From the NCBI GenBank assembly GCA_963737655.1, contig CAVTTN010000002.1, positions 1,824,001-1,888,000 on the forward strand: a DNA stretch of 64,000 bases. The letters are read 5' to 3'. Below, in pieces: positions 28,150 through 47,495 of this stretch. Source of the stretch: an uncultured Planctomycetota bacterium. Its GTDB lineage: Bacteria > Planctomycetota > Planctomycetia > Isosphaerales > Isosphaeraceae. The notes below the pieces were generated by a model. That model did no database searches. It saw nothing but the letters and a program-made list of their open reading frames with translations, and was not told the origin of the DNA. Every line of letters starts with the position of its first letter. Positions within the stretch are counted from its first letter, which is position 1. A program made the position numbers and the translations under genes.

Positions 28150-29222
28150 ATGGACAGCGAGGGGAGGCCCGCGGTGACGGATTCTCGGCCCCTGGTGGCC
28201 CTCACGCTCGGGGACGTCGCCGGGATCGGGCCGGAGGTCGTCGCCCGGGCGTGGTCCGAGGCGTCGTTGCGGACGATCGCCCGTCCGTTCGTCGTCGGCC
28301 ATCCGGCGAGCCTGGAACAGGGCATCGCGATCGTCGGCGGGACGATCGAGGTCCGCGTGATCGACCGCCCGGAGGACGCCCGGCCCGACTCCCGGACGAT
28401 CCCCTGCCTCCTCGGCACCGATCAGGCCCTGGCGGGCCTGCCGCTCGGCAAGGTGGACGCTCGGGCCGGTCGCGCCGCCCATGATTTCCTGGTCTCGGCG
28501 ATCGACCTGGCCCTGGAGGGCCGGGTGGACGCGATCGTCACGCTCCCCTTGAACAAGGAATCGCTCCGGGCCGGTGGGGTGAGGCATCCCGGGCACACGG
28601 AGATCCTCGCCGAGCGGTGCGGCGTGTCGGATTTCGCGATGATGCTCTACCTCGGCCCGCCGACCGGGGGCGGGGACGCCGGGCTCGGCGTGGTCCACGC
28701 GACGCTCCATGTGCCCCTGCGAGACGTCTTCCGGCTCCTGACCATCGACCGGGTGGCCGAGACCATCGCCCTGGCCGATCGCGCCCTGAGGCCCCTGACC
28801 GGGGGGCGGGCCCGAGGGTCGCCGTGGCCGGATTGAACCCCCACGCCGGGGAGAACGGCCTGTTCGGCGACGAGGAGATCCGGGTGATCGGCCCGGCCGT
28901 CGAGAGGGCCCGGGCGATGGGGATCGACGTCGCCGGGCCGATCGCCGCCGACACCCTGTTCGTCCGCGCCGTCGGCGGCGAGTTCGACGCGGTGGTGGCG
29001 ATGTATCACGACCAGGGCCACGTGGCCCTGAAGACCCTGGGATTTGACCGCGCGGTGAACGTGACCCTCGGGCTGCCGATCGTCCGGACGAGCGTGGCCC
29101 ACGGCACGGCCTTCGACATCGCCGGCTCGGGCCGGGCCGAGACGTCCAGCCTGATCGAGGCGGTCCGCGTGGCCGCGAGGATCGTCGCCGGCCGTCGCTC
29201 GGAGGCCCTGACCCGATCATGA
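28150..29222 (+). CDS. pdxA: 4-hydroxythreonine-4-phosphate dehydrogenase PdxA family, apparent frameshift in G6 at 28801-28806
   Basis: [13 protein letters not shown], then in a second frame [30 protein letters not shown]. Confidence 0.92.
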
Positions 29223-30232: not shown

Positions 30233-30951
30233 CGTCCCCTCCACGCTCGGTCTCGCCCCGGTCCTCGATCTCCGAGATTATTCAGGGTCGGGGCCGTGGG
30301 GGCAAGTCGGGCCGAGGAGAATTCGGCGACGCCGGGGCTGACCGTTGACGAGCGCAGGGGACTTCACATGGAGATTGAAGTCTTTGGAGAAATCATGGAT
30401 TCGAGCGGAAGTCGATTCGAACCGAACCCTCGGTTGATGTAAATAGGCAAAAAACCCGAAAGGTAACATTCGATTGGTTTGCAGATCTCAACGTGGTTTC
30501 GGCCCGAAACGAGCCGATTGGGACGCCGAAAAAAATGACATTTTGGGGTTGACCTCGGCGAATCGCACCTCGTAGGATCAGCCCGCACGTTCGAATTCGC
30601 CATTTTCGGTGAATCCCAAGCTCAGAAACTTCGTCGTGCCCGAGTTGCGTCACGTCCCCTGGATCGTGAGAGGGTCCGTCCGTCGCCCGCGAGCGATCGG
30701 CGGTGTGCAAGGCGCCGATCCCGCAGGGCGTCCCGATTAATTTGGCCGATCGGCCTGCGTCAAGGGGTCCCCTCTTCGGTTGAGGGGGCGTCCTTGTCGT
30801 CGAGGTCGCGCCGCGTCTGGGGCCCGGCCGAGGGGGGACCTCGGCCGGGATCGTTCGTCGTCCGCGCCCCGTTGGGTGCCCTCCGTGAGACGGGGCCCCG
30901 GCGGGGCTCGTGCCTCGTCGCGCCTCGAGTCTTCCGACCCCGGAGCCCCCC

Positions 30952-33900
30952 ATGACTGCGATGTCCCCCCCGCAAGCGAACTCCCGCCAGACCCCGGCCG
31001 ACCCCTCGACGGGTCCGCGACGACGGGAGGCGGCCCGTCGTCGCGCGAAGAAGCTCATGTTCGAGGTGCTCGAAGGCCGGGTGATGCTCGACGGCGACCT
31101 CGCCTCGGCCCAGCAGGCGTACAACCAGGCGATGACTCAGGCCGCCAGCGACGAGCAAGCGGCCAACGACGCCCGGAACGCCGCCGTGGCCGCCGCTCAG
31201 ACCGCCCTGGACGGCGTGACCCAGCAGGCCAACGCCGCGTGGTCGGCGAGCGAGGCCGACGCCTGGTCCACGTATCAGAGCGTCGTCAGCGCCGCCGACT
31301 CGACCTACTGGAGCGCGGTGAATCCGGCGTGGTCGGCCTATCAGGACGTCCTGAACAACGCCCAGACGGCCTACAACGCGGCGGCCTCGGCGGCCGACGG
31401 CAAGCAGTCGGCGGCCAACGCCTCGGCCGAGGCGGACTACCAGCAGGCCCAGACCGACGCCCAGGCGACGTACGACGCGGCGGTGGCCTCGGCCGACTCC
31501 ACGTACAACGACGCCTCGGCCGCGGCGCAAGCGGCCTTCGCCGTGGCCTCGGCGGCGGCCGACGCCACGCGAGACCAGGCCGAGGCCACGGCCCAGGCGA
31601 CCTCCGATGCCGCCGTGGCGGCGGCCAACACGGTCTACCAGGCCGCGAGCGACGGCGCGTTCGCGAGCTATCAGGCGACCGTCGCGGCCCTCCAGGCGAC
31701 GATGGACGGCGCGATCGCCGCGCTCGGGGTCACGCGAGACGCGGCGGTGGCCGCCGCGGGCTCGGCCCACTCCGCGACGATGGCGACGGCCCAGGCGGCC
31801 CACGATTCGGCGGTGGCGACGGCCCAGGCCGGCTTCGACGCCGCCCAGACCGCCGCCGGGACGGCCCGCGACTCCGCCAACGCCGCCGCGGAGGCCACCT
31901 ACAACGACGCGCTCGCCCAGGCCGCGAACCAGTACGCCGCCGGGGCCCAGGACCAGGGCCAGACCGCCCCGCTGAACCTCGACGCCGACCCCGGCTATCA
32001 GAACGCCGTGAACGCGGCGGCGGCCGCCTACAACGCGGCCGTGGCCGCCTCCGACGCGACCTACAACGCCGCGATCGACGCCGCATCGAGCGTCTACAAC
32101 GCCGCCACCGCCGCCGCCGACGCGGCCAATCAGGCCGCCTCCGACGCCGCCGAGGCCGCCTATCAATCGGCCTCCGACGCGGCCCAGGCGGCGTATAATT
32201 CGGCCTCTCAGGCGGCCCAGGCGGCCCACGACTCGCAGTATGTCGCCGCCGAATCGGCCTACGCGGCCCAGGCTCAGGCCGCCCAGAACGCCTATACGGC
32301 GGCCGTCGCCCAGGCCGATTCCGCCTACGACGCCGCCTCCGCCTCGGCCCAGGCCACCCACGACTCCGCCTATCAGGCCGCCAACGACGCCTACAACAAC
32401 GCCTTGCAGGCCCATCAGGCCACCTACAACGCCGCCGTCGCGGCGGCCGACGCCACCCAGAGCGCCGCCTACCAGGCCGCCCAGTCCACCTATGACGCCG
32501 CCGTCCAGGCCGCGAGCGACGCCTACGACTCGGCCGCTCAATCGGCCGACGACGCGTACAACTCCGCGGTCCAGGCCGACACCGACGCCACCAACGCCCA
32601 GATCCAGGGCTATCTCGACTCGCTCAATGGAACGGTCCAGTCCGCCGATGCCGCCCGGACGGTCTCGCTCAACGCCGCGGCGGCCACCTACAGCTCCGCC
32701 TCCCAGGCCGCCAACAACGCGTATAACGACGCCGTGGCCGGCTTCAACCAGACCCGTTCCGATGCCGACAACGCCGCCAGCCAGGCGTACAGCAACACCA
32801 TGAAGGGCGCCAACGACGCCCTGAACAACGCGCAAAACGCCTTCTACCAGGCGATGAGCAACATCGAGATGGCCCAGATGCAGTGGTACTACTCGCATCC
32901 CAACGGAGGCACCCCGCCCGATTACAGCGCCCAGATGCAAGCGGCCACCGACGCCTTCAACGCGGCGAAGAAGCAATATGCCGTGACCGAGGCGCAAGCG
33001 GAAGTCACCCTGGCCCAGGCCACCGGCGCCGATGCCGTCGCGTTCGTCACGTCGGAGCAAGGCGCGGCCGTCACCCGGATCACGGCCCTGGCCAACGCCG
33101 GGAAGGACCAGGCGATCGCCGGGGCCCAGGCGAACAAGACGTATGTGGACGCGGTGGCCCCGGCCGTGGCCGACTTCCGGGCCCAGCAGGCCCACGCCAA
33201 CGCCGATCTCACGCAAGAGGTGGCCGACCAGCGGGTCGATCTCGCCCAGGCGATCGCCTCGGCCCTGAAGACCTTCCGCAACACGACGGCCGACGCCGCC
33301 GAGACCCAGGCCAACGCCAACGCGGCCGCCGACAAGGCCTGGACCCTGTCCGAGGCCTCGGCCATGGAGGCCATGAACAACGCCGACGCCGCCTCGGCCG
33401 AGACCCTGGCCAACGCCCAGGCCGACGCCGACGGTGCCCTCGACAACGCCCTGGCGCAAGCCGATGCCGCGTGGGTGGCGTCCGAGGCCTCGGCCGCGAC
33501 CACATTGGAGAACGCCCAGGCCCAGGCCGACCTGACCCGGACCACGGCCGAGGCCAACGCCGATGCCGCCCTGACCACGGCCCAATCCAACGCCGGGGCG
33601 GCGGAGGTCGCGGCCCTGGCCACGGCGGGAGTGGCGTGGTCCACCGCCCAGGCCTCGGCCGATCGGGCGTGGGTGGCCTCGGTGGTCTCGGCCAACACGG
33701 CGTTCGCCTCCTCGGCGATCGCGGCGGCCGTGGCCTCGGCCTCGGCGGAAACCAACGCCTGGGCGGCCGAGCAGAACGCCGAGGCCTCGGCCGTGGTGGC
33801 GTCCGCCTCCGCCTGGGCCGGCGCCCAGGGGACGCATTACGCGGGCTACTTGCTCGCTCAGATCCACGCCTGGGCGGCCGGGGTCTCGGCCCAGGTCGCC

Positions 33901-35424
33901 GCCGAGGTCACCTACGAGACGGCCGTCGATGCCGCCTGGGCGACCCAGCAGATGTCCGACGCGACGGCCGACGGCGCCCTGGACAACGCCCAGGCCGCCG
34001 CCGACTTCGCCCAGACCGTGGCCGTGAGCGCCGCGGAGGCGGCGTTCGACTCCGCCCAGGCCGTGGCGCAAGCGGCGTTCGACTCGGGAGAGGCCGCCGC
34101 GTGGGCCGCCGAGACGACCGCCGAGGGGGTCGCCGGGGTCGCCTGGACGGCCGCCGCCGCCTCGGCCCAGGCCGCTCTCAAGAACGCCGTGGCCGCCGCC
34201 GAGGTCGCCCACACCGCGGCCCTGGTCTCCGCGGGCAAGGCCCAGGTCTCGGCGCTGGCCTCGGCCAATACCGCCTGGGCCCGGAGCGAGGCGTCGGCCG
34301 ATTCCGCCTTCAAGAGGACGATGGCCGACGCCGCCTCGCAGTGGGTCGCCGCCGGGGCCGCCGCCGCCAAGGACTGGGCCAAGGCGATCGCCGACGCCGC
34401 CAAGACCTGGTCCGACACCGTCTGGCCCGGCTGGGCCACCTACGTCGACGCCCAGGCCCACGCCGCCGCCGACTGGACCGATTCGGTCGTCCACGGTTAC
34501 GCCGATTATCAGAAGGGCGTCGCCGGGGCCGGCGTCACGTTCGTCCAGACCGTGGCCCCCGCGCAGGTCACCTACGCCACGGCGGTGGCCAACGCCGACA
34601 AGACGTTCAACATCGCCATGGCGAACATCACCGTCACGCGCACCGTGGCCGGCGCCGAGTTGAACGTGGCCCAGGTCGAGGCGCAAGACCCCTCGGCCTT
34701 CGCCTCGATCACCCCGACCGGAGGCGGGGGCGGCTGGTTCTCGGGGATCATGAGCTACCTCGGAGGGCTGGCCGGCGGCCTCCTGATCGGCGGGGCGATC
34801 GTCATCGGCCTGGCCGTCCTGGCCTGTTACATGCCGGTGGCCGCCGCCGTGGCGGGGATCGGTCTGCTGGTCGTCCTCGGCGCCAACATCGTGGCCGGGG
34901 CGATGGAGCGCTACGCCGACGGCCAGGGCCTCGGGAGCTCGGTCTTCGGCTCGGTGGCCGACAACACCGGGATCGGCGGGGCGTATGCCGCCGCGACCGG
35001 CCGGGACATCGCCACCGGACAGGACCTGGGCCTCAGCAGCGACCAGCGGGCGGCCCTGGGCGGCCAGGCCACGGCCGACCTCATCCTGGCCCTCTTCGGC
35101 GGCCGGTTCAAGTTCTGCTTCGTCGCCGGGACTCAGGTGCTCATGGGCGAGGACGACGGCTCGCTCGCCTCGACGACCGAAGACGCCGCCGCGCCCCCGA
35201 TCGACGAGGACGCGACCGACCCCGAGGTCATCGTCCTGAGCCTCGCCGGCCTGTCCCTGGCGTATGGGGCCTATCGGTGGTCCCGGGCCCGGCGTCAGGC
35301 CGAGCGCCGCCGCCGCCTCCGGGCGATCGACGCCGCTCTGAACGACGAGGATTCCCTCGACGACGAGTTCTCGTTCGAGGAGGCCGAGGACGAGCGGTTC
35401 GTCCCGGAACTCCAGGTCGCCTGA
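30952..35424 (+). CDS. Giant Ala-rich polymorphic-toxin carrier: Planctomycete LExR export motif, hendecad helical stalk, hydrophobic pre-toxin segment, Hint N-fragment (CFVAGTQVL), C-terminal TM anchor
   Basis: RRRAKKLMFEVLEGRVML; 11-residue AYxAAxxAAxA periodicity; GGLAGGLLIGG hydrophobic hairpin; CFVAGTQVLMG at 35116; TM VIVLSLAGLSLAYGAY followed by an Arg cluster. Confidence 0.85.
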   Translation: MTAMSPPQANSRQTPADPSTGPRRREAARRRAKKLMFEVLEGRVMLDGDLASAQQAYNQAMTQAASDEQAANDARNAAVAAAQTALDGVTQQANAAWSASEADAWSTYQSVVSAADSTYWSAVNPAWSAYQDVLNNAQTAYNAAASAADGKQSAANASAEADYQQAQTDAQATYDAAVASADSTYNDASAAAQAAFAVASAAADATRDQAEATAQATSDAAVAAANTVYQAASDGAFASYQATVAALQATMDGAIAALGVTRDAAVAAAGSAHSATMATAQAAHDSAVATAQAGFDAAQTAAGTARDSANAAAEATYNDALAQAANQYAAGAQDQGQTAPLNLDADPGYQNAVNAAAAAYNAAVAASDATYNAAIDAASSVYNAATAAADAANQAASDAAEAAYQSASDAAQAAYNSASQAAQAAHDSQYVAAESAYAAQAQAAQNAYTAAVAQADSAYDAASASAQATHDSAYQAANDAYNNALQAHQATYNAAVAAADATQSAAYQAAQSTYDAAVQAASDAYDSAAQSADDAYNSAVQADTDATNAQIQGYLDSLNGTVQSADAARTVSLNAAAATYSSASQAANNAYNDAVAGFNQTRSDADNAASQAYSNTMKGANDALNNAQNAFYQAMSNIEMAQMQWYYSHPNGGTPPDYSAQMQAATDAFNAAKKQYAVTEAQAEVTLAQATGADAVAFVTSEQGAAVTRITALANAGKDQAIAGAQANKTYVDAVAPAVADFRAQQAHANADLTQEVADQRVDLAQAIASALKTFRNTTADAAETQANANAAADKAWTLSEASAMEAMNNADAASAETLANAQADADGALDNALAQADAAWVASEASAATTLENAQAQADLTRTTAEANADAALTTAQSNAGAAEVAALATAGVAWSTAQASADRAWVASVVSANTAFASSAIAAAVASASAETNAWAAEQNAEASAVVASASAWAGAQGTHYAGYLLAQIHAWAAGVSAQVAAEVTYETAVDAAWATQQMSDATADGALDNAQAAADFAQTVAVSAAEAAFDSAQAVAQAAFDSGEAAAWAAETTAEGVAGVAWTAAAASAQAALKNAVAAAEVAHTAALVSAGKAQVSALASANTAWARSEASADSAFKRTMADAASQWVAAGAAAAKDWAKAIADAAKTWSDTVWPGWATYVDAQAHAAADWTDSVVHGYADYQKGVAGAGVTFVQTVAPAQVTYATAVANADKTFNIAMANITVTRTVAGAELNVAQVEAQDPSAFASITPTGGGGGWFSGIMSYLGGLAGGLLIGGAIVIGLAVLACYMPVAAAVAGIGLLVVLGANIVAGAMERYADGQGLGSSVFGSVADNTGIGGAYAAATGRDIATGQDLGLSSDQRAALGGQATADLILALFGGRFKFCFVAGTQVLMGEDDGSLASTTEDAAAPPIDEDATDPEVIVLSLAGLSLAYGAYRWSRARRQAERRRRLRAIDAALNDEDSLDDEFSFEEAEDERFVPELQVA

Positions 35425-35531
35425 GACCCCCGACCTCGAAGGGCCGGCGCCGGAATTCCCGGCGTCGGCCCGCCCCGAGGCCGAGCCCGGCCCCGGACCG
35501 GAACTCCCCCCAAACCGCCGAGGAACCGACC

Positions 35532-36434
35532 ATGAACCGAACCGAAACGGCCCCGAAAGGGCCCCGATTCTGGACGGCCTGGACCCTCTCCTGGGCCGCC
35601 GTCTTCGGCCTGGCCCTCGCCCACCTCGCCTGGCGACACGGCGACAGGACGGCCGACCGCCCGGCCCTCGCCCGGCTCTCCTCGCCCGTCCCGACCCCTT
35701 CGAAAAAGACCAAATCCATCGAAACCATCGCGCCGGGCGATCGCGTCCTGGCCCGCAACGACGTGACCGGCGAAGTGGCGCCCCGACGGGTCGCCCAGGT
35801 CTTCCGCAACACGGCCGACCACCTGAGGACGGTCCGCATCCGCTCCGATTCCGGCACCGTTCAGGAGCTGAAGACGACCGACGACCACCCGTTCTTCGTC
35901 GTGGGCCGGGGCTGGGTCCTGGCCAGGTCGCTGGAACCCGGAAACAAGGTCCTTCAGCCCGACGGCCGCGAGGCGGAGGTCGATTCGACGTCGCGAGAGG
36001 CGCATCCGGAGGGCGTCGCCGTCTTCAACTTCGAGGTCGCCGAGTTCCACACCTATTTCGTGGCCGAGACGGCCAACGATCCGTTCGTCCTCGTCCACAA
36101 CGACTGCGTGGCCCGCGCCGAGGCCGCCGCCGCCCGTCACGGCGGAACACGGATGCCCGGGACCGACAACTGGAGCTTCCCGACCCGAAGGGCGGCCCGG
36201 CAAGCGGCGTCGGAGATCGCCGGCAACCTCGGCTCCGATCCCGTCCCGATCCGCATGAGGGACTTCCGGGGCAAGCCTCCCGGGTTCAACCCCAACTCGG
36301 AGATGGTCCACGGCCAGAAGAGCGCCGACGGCTCGATCCTCTGGCGGGACGACTTCCTCGGCCATCCCCGGTTCGGCGCCGGGCCTCACGTGAACGTGGA
36401 GATCGACGGGCACAACTTCCACCTGTTCTACTGA
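35532..36434 (+). CDS. Cassette 1: N-terminal TM + Hint C-fragment + His-rich nuclease/RNase-type toxin
   Basis: GAGGAA RBS; TM FWTAWTLSWAAVFGLALAHLAW; KSIETIAPGDRV...TTDDHPFFV..GW..FNFEV..HTYFV..VLVHN; toxin RRAARQAA..WRDD..GH..GPHVNV..HLFY. Confidence 0.88.
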   Translation: MNRTETAPKGPRFWTAWTLSWAAVFGLALAHLAWRHGDRTADRPALARLSSPVPTPSKKTKSIETIAPGDRVLARNDVTGEVAPRRVAQVFRNTADHLRTVRIRSDSGTVQELKTTDDHPFFVVGRGWVLARSLEPGNKVLQPDGREAEVDSTSREAHPEGVAVFNFEVAEFHTYFVAETANDPFVLVHNDCVARAEAAAARHGGTRMPGTDNWSFPTRRAARQAASEIAGNLGSDPVPIRMRDFRGKPPGFNPNSEMVHGQKSADGSILWRDDFLGHPRFGAGPHVNVEIDGHNFHLFY

Positions 36435-36512
36435 GGCGAAGCGGGCGAGGCCGGGGGCCCGACACTCGGCTCCTGGCCCGCCGGATTCGATCCGGATCGG
36501 GGAGGTTCGGTC

Positions 36513-36887
36513 GTGAAGGCATTCTGGCGGTACGACTGCGACTTCGGCCATCACTGGACCTTCTACCGAGACCTCGACGCCCCGGAGAGGCCCGAGGACA
36601 CGGTCTGTCCGTTCGGCCACGAGGCCGTGACACGGACCCGAGAGCCGGTGGTCGATCGGGTCGAGATCGCGTTCCGTCCCGGGGCGCGGGTGGTCGATTC
36701 GGTCAAGGGTCAGATCGGCCACGAATACGATTTCCACCTCGTCCTGACCGATCCGAGGACCGGCGAAACGAGGATGTCGCTCCGGCCCGTCCCCTGGACC
36801 GAGGCCCTGAGACACGCCCAGGCCCTGTACGATCGCGGCTTGACCCGCGATCGCTCGTGGGCCTACTTCGACAAGCACCTGTCCTGA
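36513..36887 (+). CDS. Candidate immunity protein for cassette 1
   Basis: 124 aa directly after the toxin; GGAGG RBS; C-x3-H and C-x3-H motifs. Confidence 0.65.
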   Translation: MKAFWRYDCDFGHHWTFYRDLDAPERPEDTVCPFGHEAVTRTREPVVDRVEIAFRPGARVVDSVKGQIGHEYDFHLVLTDPRTGETRMSLRPVPWTEALRHAQALYDRGLTRDRSWAYFDKHLS

Positions 36888-36962
36888 GCGGGCCGGTCCG
36901 CCCGGCCGATCCACCTCACCCCCCATCGCTCGGGCGTGTCTCCGCCCGAGGAGGAGGTCTTC

Positions 36963-37912
36963 ATGATCGGTGAGATTCCGCGAGACGACCCCGCGAACGA
37001 TCCCCGGCCCGCGCGATCGGCCCGGTTCTGGGCCCTCTGGACGATGGCCTCGGCGACCGTGGTCCTTGGGGTCATGGCGACGAGGGGGGCTTCCCCTCCG
37101 AAGCCCGAGAGGCCCGCCGGACCGGTCTGGCGGCCGATCTCCGTCACGGCCGAGCCCGCCCGGCGCTCGAGGTCGATCGAAGAGGTGAAGGTCGGCGACC
37201 TGGTGATGAGCCGGGACGACGCGACCGGCGCCGTGGTCCCGAAGCGGGTCGTTCGCCTGTTCCGCAACACCTCGGACCACCTCCGGCTGGTCCGGGTCCG
37301 GGCCGGGTCCGGCGCCGAGCAGACGATCGAGACGACCGACGACCACCCGTTCTTCGTCGTCGGCCACGGCTGGTCGGCGGCCAGGGACCTTGTTCCCGGA
37401 GACCGCCTGACCCAGCCCGACGGCGAGATGGCCGAGGTCGCCGCGACCGAGAGGCGGGATCATCCCGAGGGCGTCCCGGTCTTCAACTTCGAGGTCGAAG
37501 GGACGCACAATTACTTCGTGGCGCGATCGCCCGACGATGCGTTCGTCCTCGCCCATAACGAGTGCATCCGGGTCAAGCCGGGCCGGCAGGCCCCGGGCCA
37601 CGAGTTCCGGATCAGCCCCGATGAGCTGAATTTCGTCAAGAACTTGCTCGCGAGGAACCGCAAGCCCAACCTGGAGGTCTATCGGACGAACCAGACCGAG
37701 AGGATGGGCGACTTCATCGTGATCGATCGTTCCAATCCCAGCAAACCCGTCGGCTGGGTCGTGGACGTGAAGATGGGCGGAGGGGCGCGGGCAACCAGCT
37801 GGAGAACGCCGCGAGGGCCAAGCAGATGTTCGGCCTCGACCAGCTCAAGACGGCCTCGGGGACCGCCGCCGACCTGATCCGCCAGCTCGGGATCGGCCGG
37901 GGGCAATGGTGA
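36963..37912 (+). CDS. Cassette 2: N-terminal TM + Hint C-fragment + PD-(D/E)xK-like nuclease toxin, apparent frameshift at 37782-37785
   Basis: GAGGAGG RBS; TM FWALWTMASATVVLGVMA; RSIEEVKVGDLV...TTDDHPFFV...VLAHN; toxin GDFIVID...VVDVK; adding one G gives AGNQLENA...W* ending at 37912. Confidence 0.85.
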
Positions 37913-37916
37913 CGCG

Positions 37917-39071
37917 ATGACCGGAGATTCGACGCGATGGCGGATCGCCGACGGAGGGCCGGCGATCCCCGAACCTTCCTCCGAGGAGGTGGCCCGGATG
38001 CTCGGGTCGGCCGAGGCCCGGCCTTCGGGCGATCGGCCCTGGGCGATCGTCCGCTCTCCGGACGACGCACCCCGTCTCCTCGCCCGCGACGACGCCGATC
38101 GGTTCGTGGCCGGGTTCTGGTCCGCGTCCGGTCGGCTCTTCCTCGCGGCCTCGCCGATCGGCGGAGGGCCCGGGTCCGTTCTCAGCGAATGGGTCCCGGA
38201 CGGCTCGTGGCGACCGGCTCTCTCCCTGGCCGGGGAGGTCCTGGGAGTCGCCACCCCGCCGGGCGGCAAGGGACCGGCCGTCACGGTCCTCGAACCCGAT
38301 CGGAAGCGGCTGGCGCTGGTCGGCCTCGACGGCTTACCGATCGCGTCCATCTCGCTCGGGTCGCCGGCCCGGGAGAGGGCCTGGGCGGCCTCCGGGACGG
38401 CCGTTCGTTCGGAGGACGGCACGCTTGCGGTCTTCGACGCCGGGCTCGCCCCCCTTGGCACGCCGTTCCGGTTCCGCAAGAGACTTGATGAACTGGCCCT
38501 CGCGCCGGGGCCTGATCACGTCTTTGGGTTTGGTCGCGATCCGGGGGTCTGGTCGGTCGATCTCCCGGCAGGGGAGCCCTGGTCCGTCGGGCGCGAGGGC
38601 CTCGCCACCCGCGCCGTGATCCCTCTGGGCCTCGGAGGGGCCGTTTGCGGATGGGAAGATGGCGCGGTCACGCGGTTCGATGCGTCGTCGCGACAGGTCC
38701 TCTGGACGACCGAGGCCGAGCCCGGGTGCCAATCCCTGGTGATCGACGTGGCCATCGGGACCGGGCGGGTCGTCTCGGGCTCGTCCTCGGGAAAAGTCCG
38801 AGCCCTCGACCTCCTCGGCGGAGCGGGGCGCTGGGAGATCGACGTGGGGACGGGCACGGTCGAGCACGTCCTGATCCTGGGCGGATGGGTGATCGCGGCC
38901 GGGGCGAACGAAGTCCTCTCCGTCCTGGATCTGGCCTCGGGCGAGGCCCGGGCCCACCTCTTCGGCCACCGGCACCGGATCACCCACTTGACTCCTTCGG
39001 CCCTCGGATCCGGGTTCATCTCCGCCGACAAGACGGGCCGAATCCTCGCCTGGGACCTCGCCGGGGGATGA
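37917..39071 (+). CDS. WD40/PQQ-like beta-propeller protein, candidate immunity for cassette 2
   Basis: GHRHRITHL...SADKTGRILAWD and SGSSSGKVRALD repeats; starts 4 nt after the corrected toxin stop. Confidence 0.7.
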   Translation: MTGDSTRWRIADGGPAIPEPSSEEVARMLGSAEARPSGDRPWAIVRSPDDAPRLLARDDADRFVAGFWSASGRLFLAASPIGGGPGSVLSEWVPDGSWRPALSLAGEVLGVATPPGGKGPAVTVLEPDRKRLALVGLDGLPIASISLGSPARERAWAASGTAVRSEDGTLAVFDAGLAPLGTPFRFRKRLDELALAPGPDHVFGFGRDPGVWSVDLPAGEPWSVGREGLATRAVIPLGLGGAVCGWEDGAVTRFDASSRQVLWTTEAEPGCQSLVIDVAIGTGRVVSGSSSGKVRALDLLGGAGRWEIDVGTGTVEHVLILGGWVIAAGANEVLSVLDLASGEARAHLFGHRHRITHLTPSALGSGFISADKTGRILAWDLAGG

Positions 39072-42629: not shown

Positions 42630-43302
42630 GATCGACTTCTCCCTGGATGAACCCGGTGGGGATCTCCATCGGGCCTCGGTCCTCGTCGGCGGTCGAATTC
42701 GGGTCCTCCACGGATCTCGCGATCGGCTGATGGGGACTGCCGTACTTCATCGCCAGGGCCATCTTGCGGCGGACCATCTCCATCATCCGTTCCTGGGACC
42801 CCATCCCCCATGCAAGATCGACCTTCTCGAACATGAGGACGCGAATGGGTTTGATGAGGTTGGCGGTCTCGTTGGCCGGCGGCGTGAAGCCGTTGAACGA
42901 GACGAGCAGGCCGATCGTGCCGACCGGCCGATGTTCGACGAGAACATGAAGACGATAGAATGGATCGATGTCAATCGGGCCCTTCTCGAACTTCGATTGG
43001 ACCAGGAACCCCCGCCACCCGTCCAGGATCAGCCCGTCGTTTTGCCCTCGGACCATGTCCCCCGCCTGGGTCATGATGGGAAACGGATAGTGGACGACCG
43101 CTCCTCCCAGGCGGAATGCCTCGATCACCAACCTCTCGAAGACCAAACCGGCTTCCTGGGGCCGTAGCGCCTGCCCGTCGAAGGACGGCGATGGCGACGA
43201 ATCGTCCCTCCATCCCAGGGCGTCCCAGATCGAGCGGAGATCCTGCCAGCTTCGTGCCTGCCAGGTCGTGAGTTTCTCGAACCAGGTCGATGAATCCGCC
43301 AT
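42586..43302 (-). CDS. Mrr-like restriction endonuclease domain protein
   Basis: FERLV...QNDG...LVQSK....ID...LLVS.NGFT..A pattern. Confidence 0.75.
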   Translation of the reverse strand: MADSSTWFEKLTTWQARSWQDLRSIWDALGWRDDSSPSPSFDGQALRPQEAGLVFERLVIEAFRLGGAVVHYPFPIMTQAGDMVRGQNDGLILDGWRGFLVQSKFEKGPIDIDPFYRLHVLVEHRPVGTIGLLVSFNGFTPPANETANLIKPIRVLMFEKVDLAWGMGSQERMMEMVRRKMALAMKYGSPHQPIARSVEDPNSTADEDRGPMEIPTGFIQGEVDHDDEEVPAPGGKPS

Positions 43303-43323
43303 CGCGGGCTGCCTCCCGGGAGA

Positions 43324-43509
43324 CTATCCCTCGTGAGACGCGTCGTGCCCCCGGTGAATCCACCGCCGGGCCAGGGTCCACGCCCCGAATCCGGCCAGGG
43401 CCAGGACCAGGCCGACCGATCCGAAGGCGCAGATGTGTTCGAGCGGGGTCGTCGGCGAGAACTCGCGGCCGAACAGCTCGACGGCCACGTGATGCGCGAA
43501 AAGGGACAT
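43324..43509 (-). CDS. Small His-rich single-TM protein (possibly CbtB-like cobalt handling)
   Basis: 61 aa, one TM, six His; immediately downstream of cobN. Confidence 0.5.
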   Translation of the reverse strand: MSLFAHHVAVELFGREFSPTTPLEHICAFGSVGLVLALAGFGAWTLARRWIHRGHDASHEG

Positions 43510-43540
43510 GCGAGATTCCTCCGATTGGTGATGGGATGCT

Positions 43541-46500
43541 TCAGGATCGGGATTCGAGGGCCGCTTCGTTCTTCAGGTAGACTTCGCGGAGGCGATCGAG
43601 CGTCTCCGGGTCGGGGGCCTCCCACAGGCCGCGGTCGGCCGCTTCGAGGAGCCTCTCGGCCATCGCCCGGACGGCCCACGGGTTGGACTTCTCCATCGTG
43701 GCCCGGACTCCGGGATCGAGGAGATAGGATCGGCTCACGTGCTCGAACATCCAGTCGTCGATGACCCCGGCCGTCGCCTCGTAGCCGAACAGGTAATCGA
43801 CGGTGGCCGAGAGCTCCGAGGCCCCCTTGTAGCCGTGGGCGAGCGTCGAGGCGATCCACTTCGGGTTCACGACCCGGGAGCGGAACACCCGGTACGCCTC
43901 CTCGCGGAGGTCGCGGACCCGCACGTCGGCCGGGTTCGAGGTGTCGCCGAAATACGTCGCCGGATCGCCGCCGGCGAGGCTGCGGATCGCGGCGATCATC
44001 CCCCCGTGGTACTGGAAATAGTCGTCGGAATCGAAGATGTCGTGCTCGCGGTTGTCCTGGTTCTGGACGGCCACCGCGACCTGCGCGAGCCTCCTCTTGA
44101 AGGCGCCGGGTGCGGCCGTGCCGTGCTCGGAACGGGTGTAGGCGTAGGAACCCCAGGTGATGTACACGTCGGCCAGGTCGTGGGTCGTCTGCCAGTTGCG
44201 TTCGTCGATCAGGTTCAGGAGGCCGGCGCCGTAGGCCCCGGGCTTCGAGCCGAACACGCGGTAGAGCGCCGCCTCGCGGGTCGTCCCCGAGGCCCGTTCT
44301 CGGAGGACGTTGGCGCGGAGGTAGTTGGATCGTTCGTCCTCGTCGGCCTCGGCGACGAGTTCGACGGCGAGGTCGATCAGGGCCACGACGTTGGGGAAGG
44401 CGTCGCGGAAGAATCCCGAGATCCTGACCGTCACGTCGATCCTCGGGCGGCCCGAGTTCCTCCAGGGGGACGAGCTCGACGCCCGACACGCGGCGATTCT
44501 CGGGCGACCAGGCCGGCCGGCAGCCCATCAGGTGGAGGATTTCGGCGACGTCGTCGCCGTGGGTCCTCATGGTGGACGTCCCCCAGACGACGATGCCGAC
44601 GGTCCGGGGGAATCGGCCGTCGTGTTCCTCCCGGAACCGCTCGATCAGCCGCTCGCCGGCCTGGACGCCCACCCTCCAGGCCGCCTGGCTCGGGATCGTG
44701 TGGACATCGACCGAGTAGAAATTCCGGCCGGTGGGCAGGATGCGGGCCATCCCCCGGGTCGGGGCGCCGCTGGGCCCGGCGGGGACGAATTTGCCCTCCA
44801 GGCCGCGGAGGAGGTTGGCGACCTCGTCGGTCGTCCGGTCGAGCCGGGGCAGGAGGTCGCGGGCGACGAACCTCAGGCAGGCCGTGATCTCGGGGCTGCC
44901 CTGGAACAGGCCCAGCTCGCCGCGTCCGGCCTCCGACGTCGCCACTTCGGAGCCGATGAGCGATGCGGCGTGGAGATCCACGGCCCGCGAGACATCGCCC
45001 CACGTCGTCGTTCCCGCCGCGGGGCGGGCGGCTTCGGGGTTTCGGGCCTCGCGGAGGTCCTCCATCACCTGACCCCAGTCATGCGCCCACCGATCGGGGC
45101 CGCGAGTGATGAAGATACTCCTGAGGATCGGATTCGAGAGGACCTCCTCGACCGGCGACCCGAGCGGCCACTGGCTCGGGGGGGCCTCGATCCCCCACGC
45201 CCGGGCGATCGCGTCTCGCAGGGACGGCACGTCCCCGTTCGGCAATCGGAGCATCGCCCGGACGGTCTCGACCCGTTGCCGGCCCCTCGGCGGCTCGCCG
45301 AGCACATGAAGGCCGTCGCGGATCTGGGCGTCTCCTAATTCGCACAGATATCCATCGATTTCCTGCAAGAACGCATCGATCTTTTCTCCTTCGGGCCGTT
45401 CCGGGGGGCCGCACGCCCTGGGAGGGGCGCATCTCGGGCCGGTTTTTCGGTGCGAGTGCGTCGGGCCGCCCTGGGAGATCCCCCCGGGCTTGTAGACGAT
45501 CCCGACCGGCCCGCACGGCGATTCCACGTCCTTGTGGAGGTCGTTCTCGAGGTAGAGGCCCCAGATTTCCTCGAAGATCGCCGGCAGCTTGGTCGGGTCG
45601 AGCGACGCCATCCGGTAGTATTCGTCGATCAGGTGCTCCAGGCGGAGGAGGTCGTCGTACGTCTCGGCCCGGGTCATGGCCGGGATCATGTGATCGAGGA
45701 TCACGGCGCCGCTGCGTCGCTTCGCCTGCGTCCCCTCGCCGGGATTGTTGATGATGTAAGGATAAAAATTGGGCAGATCGCCGATCATGATCTCGGGAAA
45801 GCATTCGTCCGACGACGCCAGGGCCTTCCCCGGGAGCCATTCGAGGTTGCCGTGCTTGCCCATGTGGATCACCGCATGGGCGCCGAACTCGCGGGCGATC
45901 CAGCGGTAATAGGCGAGGTAATGGTGGGTCGGCGGCAGGTCGGGGCTGTGGTAGATCGCCATCGGGTCGGCGCCGAAGCCCCGAGGGGGCTGGATCCCGA
46001 CGAAGACATTGCCGAGGACCAGGCCCGGGATCGCCAGGCGATCGTCGATCCGCCCGACCGTCCCCAGGGGGACGCCCCAGCGGGCGACCATCGCCTTGCG
46101 GGTGGACGGGGGAAGCTCGTCGAACAGGGGGTCATAGGTCGGCAAGGTCACGTGGCCGACGGCCGACCGCCAACCCTCGTCGGCCTGGAACTCGTCGTCG
46201 AACGTGCAACCGTCGATCAGCCGATGCATCAGGGAATCGCCGTCGGGCGGGATGTCCTCGACGCGATATCCGGCGTTTTTCAGGGCCCTCAGGACGTTCA
46301 TGACCGACGCCGGGGTGTCCAGGCCCACGCCGTTGCCGATCCTCGCGTTCTTCGACGGATAATTGCCGAAGAGGATGGCGATCTTCTTCTCGGAGTTGGC
46401 CGTGCGGCGGAGGCGGGCGAAGCTCTCGACCAGGCGGGCGACGCGGTCGATCCGGTCGGCCTTCGGGACGTAGCGGCGGACCGCCGAGCCGAGGGCGGAG

Positions 46501-47495
46501 GGGCCGTCGTCGCTCTCCTTGAAGCTGATCGCCACGGTGCCGATCCGGCCGTCGAACTCGGGCAGGACGACGTTCATCGCGGCGTCGCGAGGGGTCAGGC
46601 CGGACTTCGACGCCCGCCATTCCGATTCGGTCGAGGTGCACAGGATCGCCTGCAAGACCGGGACGTCGAGGCGGGCGAAGAGGTCGAGGATCGGGCCCGA
46701 GGATTCGGTGTGGGTCTCGTCGCCGAGGGTCGCGGCGGTGAAGCTCAGGGTGCTGATCAGGACATCGACGCGGGATCGCCCGTCCTCGTCCATCAGGACG
46801 TCGCGGAAGACCGCCGGGACGCCTCCGGGGCCGTCCTTCAGGCTGTAGAGGAAGACGGGCAGGACGCGGTGGCCGGCCGATTCGAGGCGGACGATCAGGG
46901 CATCGATCGGCGCCACGTTCCCGCTCATCCAGTGGGACCGATAGAACAGGATTCCCGCGCACGGACGGCCGCGATCGGGGTTCTCGGCGAGCCACTCGGC
47001 CAGGGAGAGCGGCTCGGGCCGGCCGGGCTCATAAATGCCCTCGCGGGGCAGGGGGGCGGGCGGATCGAAGCCGAATCTCGTGCCGAGGAGCGAATCGCCG
47101 AGGCAAAGCAGGAGGTTCCGGGCGTTCTCGGCGCCCCCCTGGGCGAAATAGTCCAGGACCTGGCCGACGAGGGGCAGGGGGGCCCGGCAGAGGGCCGTGA
47201 GCTCGGGGTCGAGGGACATCTCGCCGGGCAGGGCGAGATAGGCGATCCGCCGTTCCCGGCACCCGTGGGCGAGCCTCTCGAACCCCTCGGCGAAATACGG
47301 CTTGCCGCCCAGGACGCGGACGACCAGGACGCTCGTCCCGGGCAAATCCTCGACGAGGAAGCGATCCAGGGCGCCCGGGGCCGCAAGGTCGTTGGGATTG
47401 CCGGCGCGGACGGGAGGGAAGCCCTCGGGCAGGCGGGGGAGGGCGGCGGCGAGGGCCTGGAGCTCGGTATCGGCCGTCGAGAGGATGCGGATCAC
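43541..47495 (-). CDS. cobN: Cobaltochelatase subunit CobN, apparent frameshift near 44451
   Basis: LSTADTEL, LPEFDGRI, GVGLDTP, HMGKHGNLEWLPGK, PTGRNFY, then (RID)VTVRISGFFRDAFP, RSRVVNPKWI, HGYKGA. Confidence 0.96.

Follow-up and report, generated by a model that had tools for sequence, protein, structure and literature searches.

Background

PT-HINT polymorphic toxins (Zhang et al. 2012, PMC3482391; MafB-I, the Pseudomonas class I CdiA and Streptomyces UmbC1 are examples) combine, in the available parts of their descriptions, an export motif, a long stalk, a pre-toxin segment, a Hint domain and a variable C-terminal toxin, accompanied by toxin-immunity pairs and arrays of further cassettes. 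Their Hint domain is contiguous and lies within one polypeptide, as far as the accessible text of PMC3482391 goes. It is not settled whether, in vivo, these Hint and BIL domains splice or only cut.

Two other systems are split just past the first strand of the Hint fold, namely PolB16, an intein with an IntN of 15 aa (PMC10189870), and S1, an engineered split of the Ssp DnaB intein (IntN of 11 aa, PMC3922620, available in part). In both, a short N-fragment complements a long C-fragment. PolB16 is encoded within a putative DNA polymerase gene, with Ser at position +1 (PMC10189870), S1 is engineered, and the accessible portions of these sources describe neither as membrane-anchored.

We analyzed a window (the whole stretch of 64,000 nucleotides from an uncultured Planctomycetota bacterium) that contains a locus with the parts of a PT-HINT toxin in a different arrangement. 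A membrane hairpin interrupts the Hint domain, the gene is often divided in two, and each cassette is a complete gene that brings its own start and export helix, unlike those of PT-HINT toxins in the described portions of that system. What is chiefly new is the membrane hairpin within the Hint domain, of which the split is a fissioned version. The arrangement suggests that carrier and toxin are exported first and joined afterwards, via two membrane-tethered Hint halves. The literature searched, largely the main text of freely available papers, contains no account of a Hint toxin that is split or interrupted by TMs, of a natural split or membrane-tethered BIL, or of toxins armed after export; such forms might be listed in Additional File 1 of PMC3482391.

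Organization of the locus

The features of the locus are as follows.

30910-35424, + strand: carrier gene, 1504 aa, ending with TGA at 35422-35424; start codon uncertain
31060-31089, + strand: weak LEPR-XLL / planctomycete-extracellular-like N-terminal motif (NF012209, E 0.029, below cut-off)
31117-34659, + strand: Ala-rich stalk, predicted long coiled coil with 3.67-residue (hendecad) periodicity (Fourier peak 3.67)
34747-34914, + strand: two hydrophobic segments (hydropathy 1.78 and 1.88 at residues 1280 and 1300)
34966-35106, + strand: weak pre-toxin TG-like segment (PF14449, E 0.0072, below cut-off)
35116-35154, + strand: HintN, about 13 residues, comprising Cys1 and the first Hint strand
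35227-35322, + strand: TM1 (35227-35280) and Arg cluster (35284-35322), putative N-out/C-in stop-transfer anchor
35425-35531, + strand: spacer of 107 nt with GAGGA ahead of the cassette-1 ATG, equivalent to the cytoplasmic loop of fused relatives
35532-36434, + strand: cassette 1, 300 aa, with TM2 (35568-35633), HintC (35712-36101, with TTDDH and HN) and toxin tip (36102-36431); +1 residue Asp
36513-36887, + strand: candidate immunity gene 1, 124 aa, by its position behind the toxin; strong SD (-12.0)
36963-37912, + strand: cassette 2, with TM2 (37026-37079), HintC (37170-37559) and a different toxin tip; +1 residue Glu
37917-39071, + strand: WD40/PQQ-like beta-propeller gene (PF13360, E 1.6e-8; Atlas WD40 clusters), candidate immunity gene 2 by position

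The carrier reads, in order, export motif, Ala-rich coiled-coil stalk (422 Ala within residues 70-1250), hydrophobic hairpin, PT-TG-like segment, HintN, TM1, tail and TGA. The two hydrophobic segments could form a hairpin for translocation across the target membrane. The original observation that the carrier ends with the first Hint strand, an acidic linker, a TM helix and a stop agrees with the open reading frame: Cys1 is residue 1403 (nucleotide 35116), the acidic linker follows, and an acidic tail lies between the Arg cluster and the TGA. A finished genome (G713) carries a full-length orthologous carrier, 32% identical over 1554 columns and identically split, whose export motif matches PF07595 with E 0.0021, below the cut-off.

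The remainder of PT-HINT had been placed in two separate downstream genes with N-terminal hydrophobic helices, and both the reading frames and the profile matches bear this out (cassette 1, profile positions 8-137, E 3.2e-24; cassette 2, positions 9-136, E 4.9e-19). TxxH and the terminal HN are present in both HintC segments. Carrier and toxin are thus separate reading frames in the window, and trafficking, stalk and toxin modules share one polypeptide in the fused relatives only.

The two toxin tips are distinct, as had been claimed. Tip 1 forms the C-terminal end of six longer proteins at 52-58% identity, three of them RHS proteins, and PT-HINT proteins are among those that it terminates in this identity range; it is therefore a variable toxin domain common to other carriers, as in polymorphic toxins. 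Its top Atlas clusters are without names, and Ntox37 (0.89) and Tox-HNH-EHHH (0.86) are leads only. Tip 2, with no family match in profile searches, has a restriction-endonuclease-like D..DxK pattern recognized by eye; in this assembly a frameshift interrupts it near 37780, and its probable end is the TGA at 37910-37912. One G713 cassette terminates in Tox-GHH (E 3.9e-10).

Each cassette was expected to have its own ribosome-binding site. This is evident for cassette 2, whose SD (-13.0 kcal/mol) falls within the top 0.4% of starts, but that of cassette 1 is of median strength (-5.9 kcal/mol). The gene order of toxin followed by immunity gene fits the polymorphic toxin layout, and the expectation of an immunity gene behind each toxin holds as to position, by which both genes are candidates; the second is a propeller, candidate immunity gene 1 has no Pfam or NCBIfam family, and neither matches a named immunity family.

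The split in this genome

Because the assembly (G000) is rich in indels, with 112 apparent frameshifts over 618 kb (about 0.18 per kb, rising to 0.26-0.36 per kb under a looser filter), we tested for an artefact, in which carrier and cassette 1 would be a single fused, TM-interrupted gene. The cassette-1 frame differs from that of the carrier and is open back to 32883, i.e., across the carrier stop, and a single missing base at the stop would fuse the two. Fused homologs exist, and in one named MAG (L052-L057) near-identical paralogs are fused and shifted, the pattern expected of errors or decay; we excluded these loci from the split tally as probable cases of either.

Against such an error, the score up to the stop is +17.4 bits in the carrier frame and -45 in the cassette frame, and any error would therefore be confined to the last few codons. 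The spacer read in the cassette frame has a codon score of -3.6 bits, compared to 18.1 +/- 6.1 for coding segments, and lies below 99.8% of them. The G713 ortholog likewise has a 103-aa tail, and a 50-nt spacer that contains stops. A further argument comes from the motif CF[VIT][AGD]GT, of which the genome has two copies among 15.26 M six-frame residues; behind each come a TM, a basic cluster and, about 100 aa on, a stop. Since both copies share this layout, the HintN arrangement is not due to chance. The second of these loci is equally split, by an in-frame TGA, and has an SD-ATG. Fusion through one missing base at the stop is unlikely, an assembly error as the source of the split is very improbable, and we are confident that the split in the window is real.

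Split and fused forms among relatives

The predicted layout of HintN-TM-stop followed by TM-HintC-toxin was sought in Planctomycetota and found in the single-contig finished genomes G455 (100% complete) and G713 (99%) and in 11 survey loci. The survey of 251 genomes gave 26 HintN-TM1 matches in 19 genomes, 4 of the 26 being training rows of the profile itself, which also misses known HintN copies (e.g., in G288). Nine of the matches are fused, 14 stop 67-118 aa past Cys1, one stops at 264 aa, and two run off. Outside G000, 11 of the 12 early stops have a TM2-HintC reading frame next (11 loci, 10 genomes); all 11 such frames have an ATG 6-21 codons ahead of TM2, and 10 of them an SD-like motif. 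In a protein set of 132 HintN-TM1 proteins 78 end 58-130 aa past Cys1 and 33 carry HintC, tail lengths being taken here without contig context, so that a contig break may account for some of the early ends. The same profile matched in 3 of 121 same-family genomes and missed the known G288 copy among 10 chosen genomes. A DNA pattern revealed a fused carrier in G738; neither pattern nor profile, the latter known to miss copies, found a carrier in G556. A metagenome scan with a single-protein query yielded three loci, none informative on the junction.

It had been stated that close homologs with carrier and cassette as one reading frame and a contiguous Hint domain would speak against the split. 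One-frame homologs are indeed frequent, about as numerous as the split ones, and include the two nearest carriers by protein search (P0048, P0049), the nearest same-family locus (L041) and the finished genomes G157, G498 and G140. Their Hint domain, however, is not contiguous: TM1, loop and TM2 lie inside it, interrupting it by 160-254 residues with two TMs. Because fused relatives hold TM1-loop-TM2 within Hint, the split amounts to fission in the cytoplasmic loop, and in about half of the loci, the window included, the gene is divided there.

A different reading of the same data treats the split loci as pseudogenes, left by decay of the fused gene. In a HintC tree of 37 of the 45 chosen loci, split and fused states are interleaved with 10 changes, at least 4 of them forced, although the clustering of the labels is not significant (53 of 500 shuffles were as low) and tip recombination may blur the picture. 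Broken copies exist (the G387 carrier that stops 264 aa past Cys1; L071 without HintN and ATG), and a trace of coding signal is left in the spacer (+8.1 bits on the best path with two shifts). Yet decay does not account well for stops clustered in the loop, for carriers intact up to thousands of residues, or for intact catalytic residues. SD-like motifs ahead of TM2 are also commoner in split than in fused modules (6/10 versus 2/16), and L069 and L080 have stop, SD and ATG in common. We consider decay improbable, and that the split is real in the family is practically certain. Architecture, split and spread are all demonstrated by sequence comparison.

Fold and membrane topology

The Cys and Phe of HintN are invariant in all 25 alignment rows (A3), and the catalytic set is conserved across the two halves, which together supply Cys1, the block-B TxxH and the terminal His-Asn of a Hint fold. 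The best structural and sequence match is the C. thermocellum A-type BIL (PDB 2LWY; hmmsearch E 2e-32). The AlphaFold model of the fused homolog L041 aligns with all of its residues (138/138, Z 23.6, rmsd 1.3 A) across an insert of about 185 residues, and L041 thus models as a complete A-type BIL fold. The window family and this BIL have Cys1, TxxH and HN in common, usually with no +1 nucleophile; 2LWY is contiguous and soluble, whereas the window Hint is split and membrane-tethered. Trans-splicing of the 2LWY BIL was reportedly shown with engineered splits by Aranko in 2013.

The proposed search for a full-length HMM match of the joined halves is non-discriminating because HintC alone already exceeds the Pfam cut-off. 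Co-folding of the window halves, also proposed, gave 0.82 compared to 0.00 for the best of three controls, although the pass may reflect memory of intact Hint structures; solved complexes attained this mark in 116 of 157 cases and mismatched pairs in 2 of 215. The result speaks for association of the halves, not for trans-splicing as such. The runs have at least 85% of contacts in common with partner pLDDT of at least 63. The predicted interface sets HintN residues -2 to +13 against TTDDH and HN, and HintN, as chain-2 residues 9-23, forms the whole of its side.

Charged residues flank the helices asymmetrically. Before TM1 there are 19 K/R and 83 D/E in 25 modules, compared to 158 K/R and 49 D/E after it; TM2 has 190 K/R before and 70 after in 60 modules. 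This bias supports TM1 as N-out/C-in and TM2 as N-in/C-out, which would place both halves on the same non-cytoplasmic side. TM1 would hold the exported carrier with HintN in the membrane, TM2 would export HintC with the toxin, and the fold would be rebuilt outside the cytoplasm; these steps are strongly inferred. Points against are the weak match of the export motif and the oxidizing compartment in which the lone Cys1 would need to act. The original idea that the halves meet on the membrane and reconstitute Hint is thus supported by their common side, the predicted complete fold and the conserved catalytic residues, but no confident TM1-TM2 contact appeared in the co-folding. We regard functional complementation of the halves as likely, as in PolB16 and S1. 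The window family differs from those two in the TM anchor behind the N-fragment, in exteins that are a delivery stalk and variable toxins, and in the predicted assembly outside the cytoplasm.

Ligation or cleavage

The best explanation is a planctomycete polymorphic toxin in which an A-type BIL / PT-HINT domain holds TM1, cytoplasmic loop and TM2 between strand 1 and the remainder of the fold. The least certain steps are chemical: the rebuilt domain may form a Cys1 thioester and cyclize its terminal Asn, and the new amino terminus of the toxin may be ligated to the stalk by BIL-type aminolysis. One reaction would then free carrier and toxin from both anchors and join them. Ligation is preferred because TM1 lies downstream of Cys1, and the stalk can depart with its toxin only once Hint and both anchors have been excised and the free ends linked. 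We put this whole explanation, ligation included, at roughly 0.5, and for ligation as the physiological outcome the odds are even.

The family fits the natural split inteins in having IntN and IntC on separate genes with an extein on each, and differs from them in mostly lacking a +1 nucleophile and in not residing in a conserved host protein, the exteins being stalk and variable toxins. It agrees with A-type BIL / PT-HINT domains in having no conserved +1 Cys/Ser/Thr (in 22 linked modules, 15 Ala, 3 Ser/Thr and no Cys; Asp and Glu in the window) and departs from their contiguous domain of about 135 residues.

The halves could also rebuild Hint without ligating, either by cleavage only, where N-cleavage frees the stalk and Asn cyclization the toxin, or as a non-covalent clasp from which signal peptidase removes TM2 and another protease TM1. 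The absence of a +1 nucleophile in 19 of the 22 modules is in line with this, as are the available text of PMC7664689, where BIL domains "produce predominantly cleaved products", and the accessible descriptions of PT-HINT as a releasing autopeptidase (PMC3482391; PMC4725963). After cleavage alone, however, stalk and toxin would be unconnected. There is no general disulfide tether: Cys residues near the two junctions do not co-occur (both in 2 of 22 pairs, N only in 6, C only in 6, none in 8).

C-terminal sorting signals (PEP-CTERM, GlyGly-CTERM, LPXTG) place a TM helix and a basic cluster near the C-terminus of exported proteins. TM1 and its basic cluster resemble them, and several cassette N-termini (e.g., in G713 and G298) look like classical signal peptides, both of which would suit an outcome of this kind. 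In contrast, AxA-type cleavage motifs after TM2 are no commoner than in shuffles (6 versus 6.1, 9 versus 8.2, 9 versus 8.7), no sorting-signal family matches more than 2 of the 25 HintN-TM1 rows or that of the window, and no conserved sorting motif was detected in the family, whose own Hint would supply the chemistry for cutting. An outcome without ligation is possible, at about one-third weight in our judgment.

Because anchors inside the domain part the toxin from the stalk, a joined product is a clear yes/no readout, and the split family makes the question of splicing versus cutting directly testable. If the preferred explanation with ligation is true, this would be a natural split BIL assembled outside the cytoplasm, physiological ligation without a +1 nucleophile, and a built-in rule against processing ahead of export. 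An N-fragment of about 13 residues with little +1 requirement would be useful in protein ligation. Many stand-alone "HINT domain-containing" genes in planctomycete annotations would be explained by the split.

Cassette arrays

If true, the preferred reading would also give toxin polymorphism without DNA rearrangement, by combinatorial assembly at the protein level. The full version, in which natural split BILs across Planctomycetia trans-splice outside the cytoplasm, shed both anchors and arm the carrier with any of several toxins, is tentative and rather doubtful. It competes with the view that only cassette 1 partners the carrier, and that cassette 2 and later ones are orphan tips swapped in by DNA recombination. 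This narrower view is compatible with the best explanation and bears on the claim of alternative warheads; it falls slightly short of an even chance.

Recombination of cassettes is the established rule in the available text of PMC3482391, and later cassettes may be ordinary recombination donors. In 6 of the 8 split-carrier arrays compared (G717, G701, G455, L069, L058, L073), first and later cassettes are 84-99% identical in DNA over HintC, usually also over TM2, and in the fused G498 cassettes are 88.6% identical over 762 nt. Identity of 84-99% fits recombination or duplication and post-translational choice of warhead equally well. Expressed orphan rhs genes are known, on the other hand, from the accessible part of PMC7043789. 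The window cassettes are 74% identical over about 350 nt inside HintC with nothing detectable over TM2, and those of G713 have two short patches of about 73% only. The second cassettes of both retain TM and start codon, with an SD of the strength given above in the window.

Organization of the split locus

The original prediction held that the carrier, a stalk protein, stops after the first Hint strand and a transmembrane (TM) helix and that the rest of the Hint domain lies in two downstream genes, and both the open reading frames (ORFs) and the PT-HINT coverage, which in each cassette runs from model position 8 or 9 through to the model end, agree with it. We refer to Cys1 with the first strand as HintN, to the rest of the domain as HintC, to the helices after HintN and before HintC as TM1 and TM2, and to the TM2-HintC-toxin genes as cassettes; loci are split when HintN and HintC are on separate genes, and fused when a single gene has TM1-loop-TM2 inside Hint.

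Features of the locus (window coordinates, strand, feature, basis)
30910-35424, +, carrier gene, 1504 aa (ORF)
35116, +, HintN Cys1, carrier residue 1403 (carrier translation)
carrier stop to cassette 1, +, spacer of 107 nt (ORF positions)
35532-36434, +, cassette 1 (PT-HINT, E 3.2e-24)
between cassettes 1 and 2, +, 124-aa gene (ORF)
from 36963, +, cassette 2 (PT-HINT, E 4.9e-19)
after cassette 2, +, beta-propeller gene (gene order)

The carrier ends in the order Cys1, ~12 further Hint residues, acidic linker, hydrophobic helix, Arg cluster, acidic tail and TGA, and this tail had no family match in the search that found PT-HINT in both cassettes. Its stalk has hendecad periodicity and its N-terminus a weak likeness to the LEPR-XLL motif (E 0.029). 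The toxin domain of cassette 1 also forms the end of six longer proteins, including three RHS proteins, at 52-58% identity and is therefore a genuine polymorphic tip.

The source genome (G000) has seven PT-HINT matches, namely four intact domains, the two window cassettes and one more cassette at L008, a second locus; the strict HintN motif occurs only in the window and at L008 among 15.26 M six-frame residues. The L008 carrier ends like that of the window (HintN-TM-basic-acidic-TGA), followed by a 60-nt gap with SD and ATG in frame. It is a different carrier (L008:3751-13647; G000:C2 ~6.066-6.076 Mb), with Ig-like repeats, a Ser/Gly-rich stalk and several assembly frameshifts, and its HintC is of an insert-bearing subtype. 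The intact Hints (G000:C2:103015, 2440267, 2807547 and 4780144) stand at the extreme C-terminus of other proteins, and similar domains are common across the family; Cys1-to-stop is 151-157 aa, so there is little or no C-extein.

Reality of the split

That the window split is an assembly artefact we consider very improbable. By the codon model G000 carries ~0.18 apparent frameshifts per kb (112 over 618 kb, 374 genes); one lies in the cassette-2 toxin and seven are at L008, and the cassette-1 frame is open through the carrier stop. However, up to that stop the carrier frame scores +17.4 bits against -45 for the cassette frame, and at -3.6 bits the spacer ranks lower than 99.8% of the 864 coding segments scored and falls within the span of scores for 170 upstream segments free of stops; moreover, L008 would require an error of another kind. 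The split also occurs in the single-contig genomes G455 (100% complete) and G713 (99%), which, on sequence grounds, we regard as decisive for its reality in the family. G713 encodes a full-length ortholog of the window carrier (32% over 1554 columns, partly compositional); its tail measures 103 aa, the spacer is 50 nt long, and SD-ATG and two cassettes follow. Stop, SD and ATG are common to the MAG contigs L069 and L080. Apparent frameshifts in the window lie at 28150-29222 (two overlapping ORFs, which we take from motifs to be pdxA), 37780 (cassette-2 toxin) and 43125-47495 (presumably, likewise from motifs, a cobN-like gene).

Distribution of split and fused forms

A HintN-TM1 profile built from 25 rows was searched against 251 genomes from the class Planctomycetia and gave 26 matches in 19 genomes. 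Of these, 9 are fused, 14 stop 67-118 aa past Cys1, 1 stops at 264 aa and 2 extend beyond the locus; with the four training rows among them set aside, the numbers are 7 fused, 12 with an early stop, 1 broken and 2 open. The HintN-TM-stop / TM-HintC layout anticipated in Planctomycetota was recovered, a TM2-HintC ORF following 11 of the 12 early stops (10 genomes). All 11 split loci have an ATG 6-21 codons upstream of TM2, and 10 an SD-like motif. Sequence comparison establishes the architecture, the split, the conserved Cys1, TxxH and HN, and separate start signals. A single indel could join 2 of the 11, and in 5 the cassette shares the carrier's frame (in G455, at least, one stop separates them); decay of a fused gene is an improbable account of the split loci.

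Against 1.84 billion representatives the profile matched 171 proteins at E<=0.001. TM1 and the basic cluster were present in 132 among the 150 matches listed; 33 of these contain HintC, 78 end 58-130 aa past Cys1, another 17 end at 150-349, and the remaining 4 extend further but lack the terminal motif, the early-end counts being protein lengths only, which may include contig ends. Close homologs with carrier and cassette as one ORF and a contiguous Hint had been named as evidence against the prediction. P0048 and P0049, the nearest two carriers, are indeed single fused ORFs (P0050 ends 119 aa past Cys1), but in no fused gene is the Hint contiguous: strand 1 and the KxIE strand are separated by 160-254 residues that include two TMs.

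Another HintC subtype, distinguished by an insert of ~70 residues, matches in 54 of 301 genomes, a count in which orphans and some short-insert forms are included. Each of the two subtypes is found split and fused; from KxIE to block F they span ~103 and ~175 aa. On a HintC tree of 37 rows (8 of 45 loci unparsed), split and fused states need 10 changes, at least 4 of them forced. Related Hints whose inserts are 16-53 residues long and lack a TM are a plausible precursor state. An SD-like motif stands before TM2 in 6 of 10 split and 2 of 16 fused modules. Internal starts are possible in fused modules, 8 of 16 having an ATG within 60 codons; upstream of L041:7067, a fused gene, a Met stands 10 codons ahead of TM2, as in split genes.

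Topology and predicted fold

The basic flank of a TM helix marks its cytoplasmic side (the positive-inside rule). TM1 is preceded by 19 K/R and 83 D/E and followed by 158 K/R and 49 D/E (25 modules); for TM2 the K/R counts are 190 before and 70 after (60 modules). By that rule the loop would be cytoplasmic and both Hint halves outside, so a gene cut within the loop would keep the geometry.

The AlphaFold model of fused L041 (pLDDT 79-91 for residues 1-20, 83-98 for HintC, 43-71 for the insert) aligns over all 138 residues with the C. thermocellum bacterial intein-like domain (BIL) 2LWY (Z 23.6, rmsd 1.3 A), also the top match in Foldseek and hmmsearch. Co-folding of the window halves, proposed as a check, scored 0.82, and the highest-scoring of three controls 0.00; the pass mark is reached by 116 of 157 solved complexes and by 2 of 215 mismatched pairs. 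The runs had at least 85% of their contacts in common, with partner pLDDT at least 63. In the predicted interface HintN residues -2..+13 contact the KSIE strand as well as TTDDH and HN, and the co-fold has no confident contact between the two TMs. The modeling shows compatibility of the halves rather than cellular binding, because split-domain halves can pass via likeness to solved structures.

Ligation, cleavage or clasp

The halves would be exported, associate and react outside. Because TM1 is downstream of Cys1, the stalk would be freed from the membrane only by cutting the bond before Cys1 (or the linker), and the toxin would leave with it only if joined to it. Since joining would be needed and a junction disulfide tether, possible in 2 of 22 pairs, is not general, ligation of toxin to stalk is favoured for fused and split forms alike, with a probability of about 0.5. 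BIL splicing without a +1 nucleophile was reportedly seen by Dassa (2004) and Aranko (2013). Cleavage, or a non-covalent clasp, is a less likely outcome that nevertheless deserves weight: the +1 residue is Asp/Glu in the window, among 22 modules 15 have Ala there, 3 have Ser/Thr and none has Cys, and the available part of PMC7664689 describes BILs as yielding chiefly cleaved products. AxA motifs after TM2, which would mark its cleavage, show no enrichment over shuffled sequences. Ligation in its fullest form, trans-splicing with several warheads, is tentative.

The system works like PT-HINT polymorphic toxins but is not one polypeptide, shares the domain type of A-type BILs but is not contiguous, and differs from split inteins in the +1 nucleophile and the host protein. 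According to the available parts of the respective papers, the split is similar in position to the engineered S1 split (11 residues; PMC3922620) and to PolB16 (15 residues; PMC10189870). Split or TM-interrupted Hints are not described in the available parts of PMC3482391, PMC7738311, PMC3922620, PMC7664689, PMC10189870, PMC4725963, PMC13483458, PMC7043789 and bioRxiv 10.1101/2023.12.09.570830, nor in a wider literature search that covered few subscription papers and so does not prove novelty. The architecture is both real and widespread, and it is apparently undescribed; it is a variant of polymorphic toxin systems, and would be a new mechanism if trans-splicing were shown.

Cassette arrays

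Arming of the carrier in trans by later cassettes is about as likely as not. Cassette DNA identity is 84-99% in 6 of 8 split-carrier arrays compared, enough for recombination; the cassettes of the window share with each other, as do those of G713, only ~73-74% over short parts, with TM and start retained. The two HintC subtypes alternate in one array behind the same carrier at L133 (G157) and L154, L175 and L138 (G498). The finished genome G738 has long arrays of at least 4 and at least 6 cassettes (L208, L209) and a fused carrier elsewhere (L255). At L260 (G701:C2:866000-878000) three cassettes, 99% identical over TM2-HintC and spaced by 3378 nt, follow a split carrier in what looks like a recent tandem amplification. 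Lone cassettes with no carrier nearby occur at L047, L059, L078, L079 and L203; that at L047 adjoins tRNA-like sequence (by eye), which suggests insertion as mobile pieces. At L045, in a Planctomycetaceae MAG, three successive modules are each a complete HintN-TM1-loop-TM2-HintC, so the repeated unit there includes HintN.
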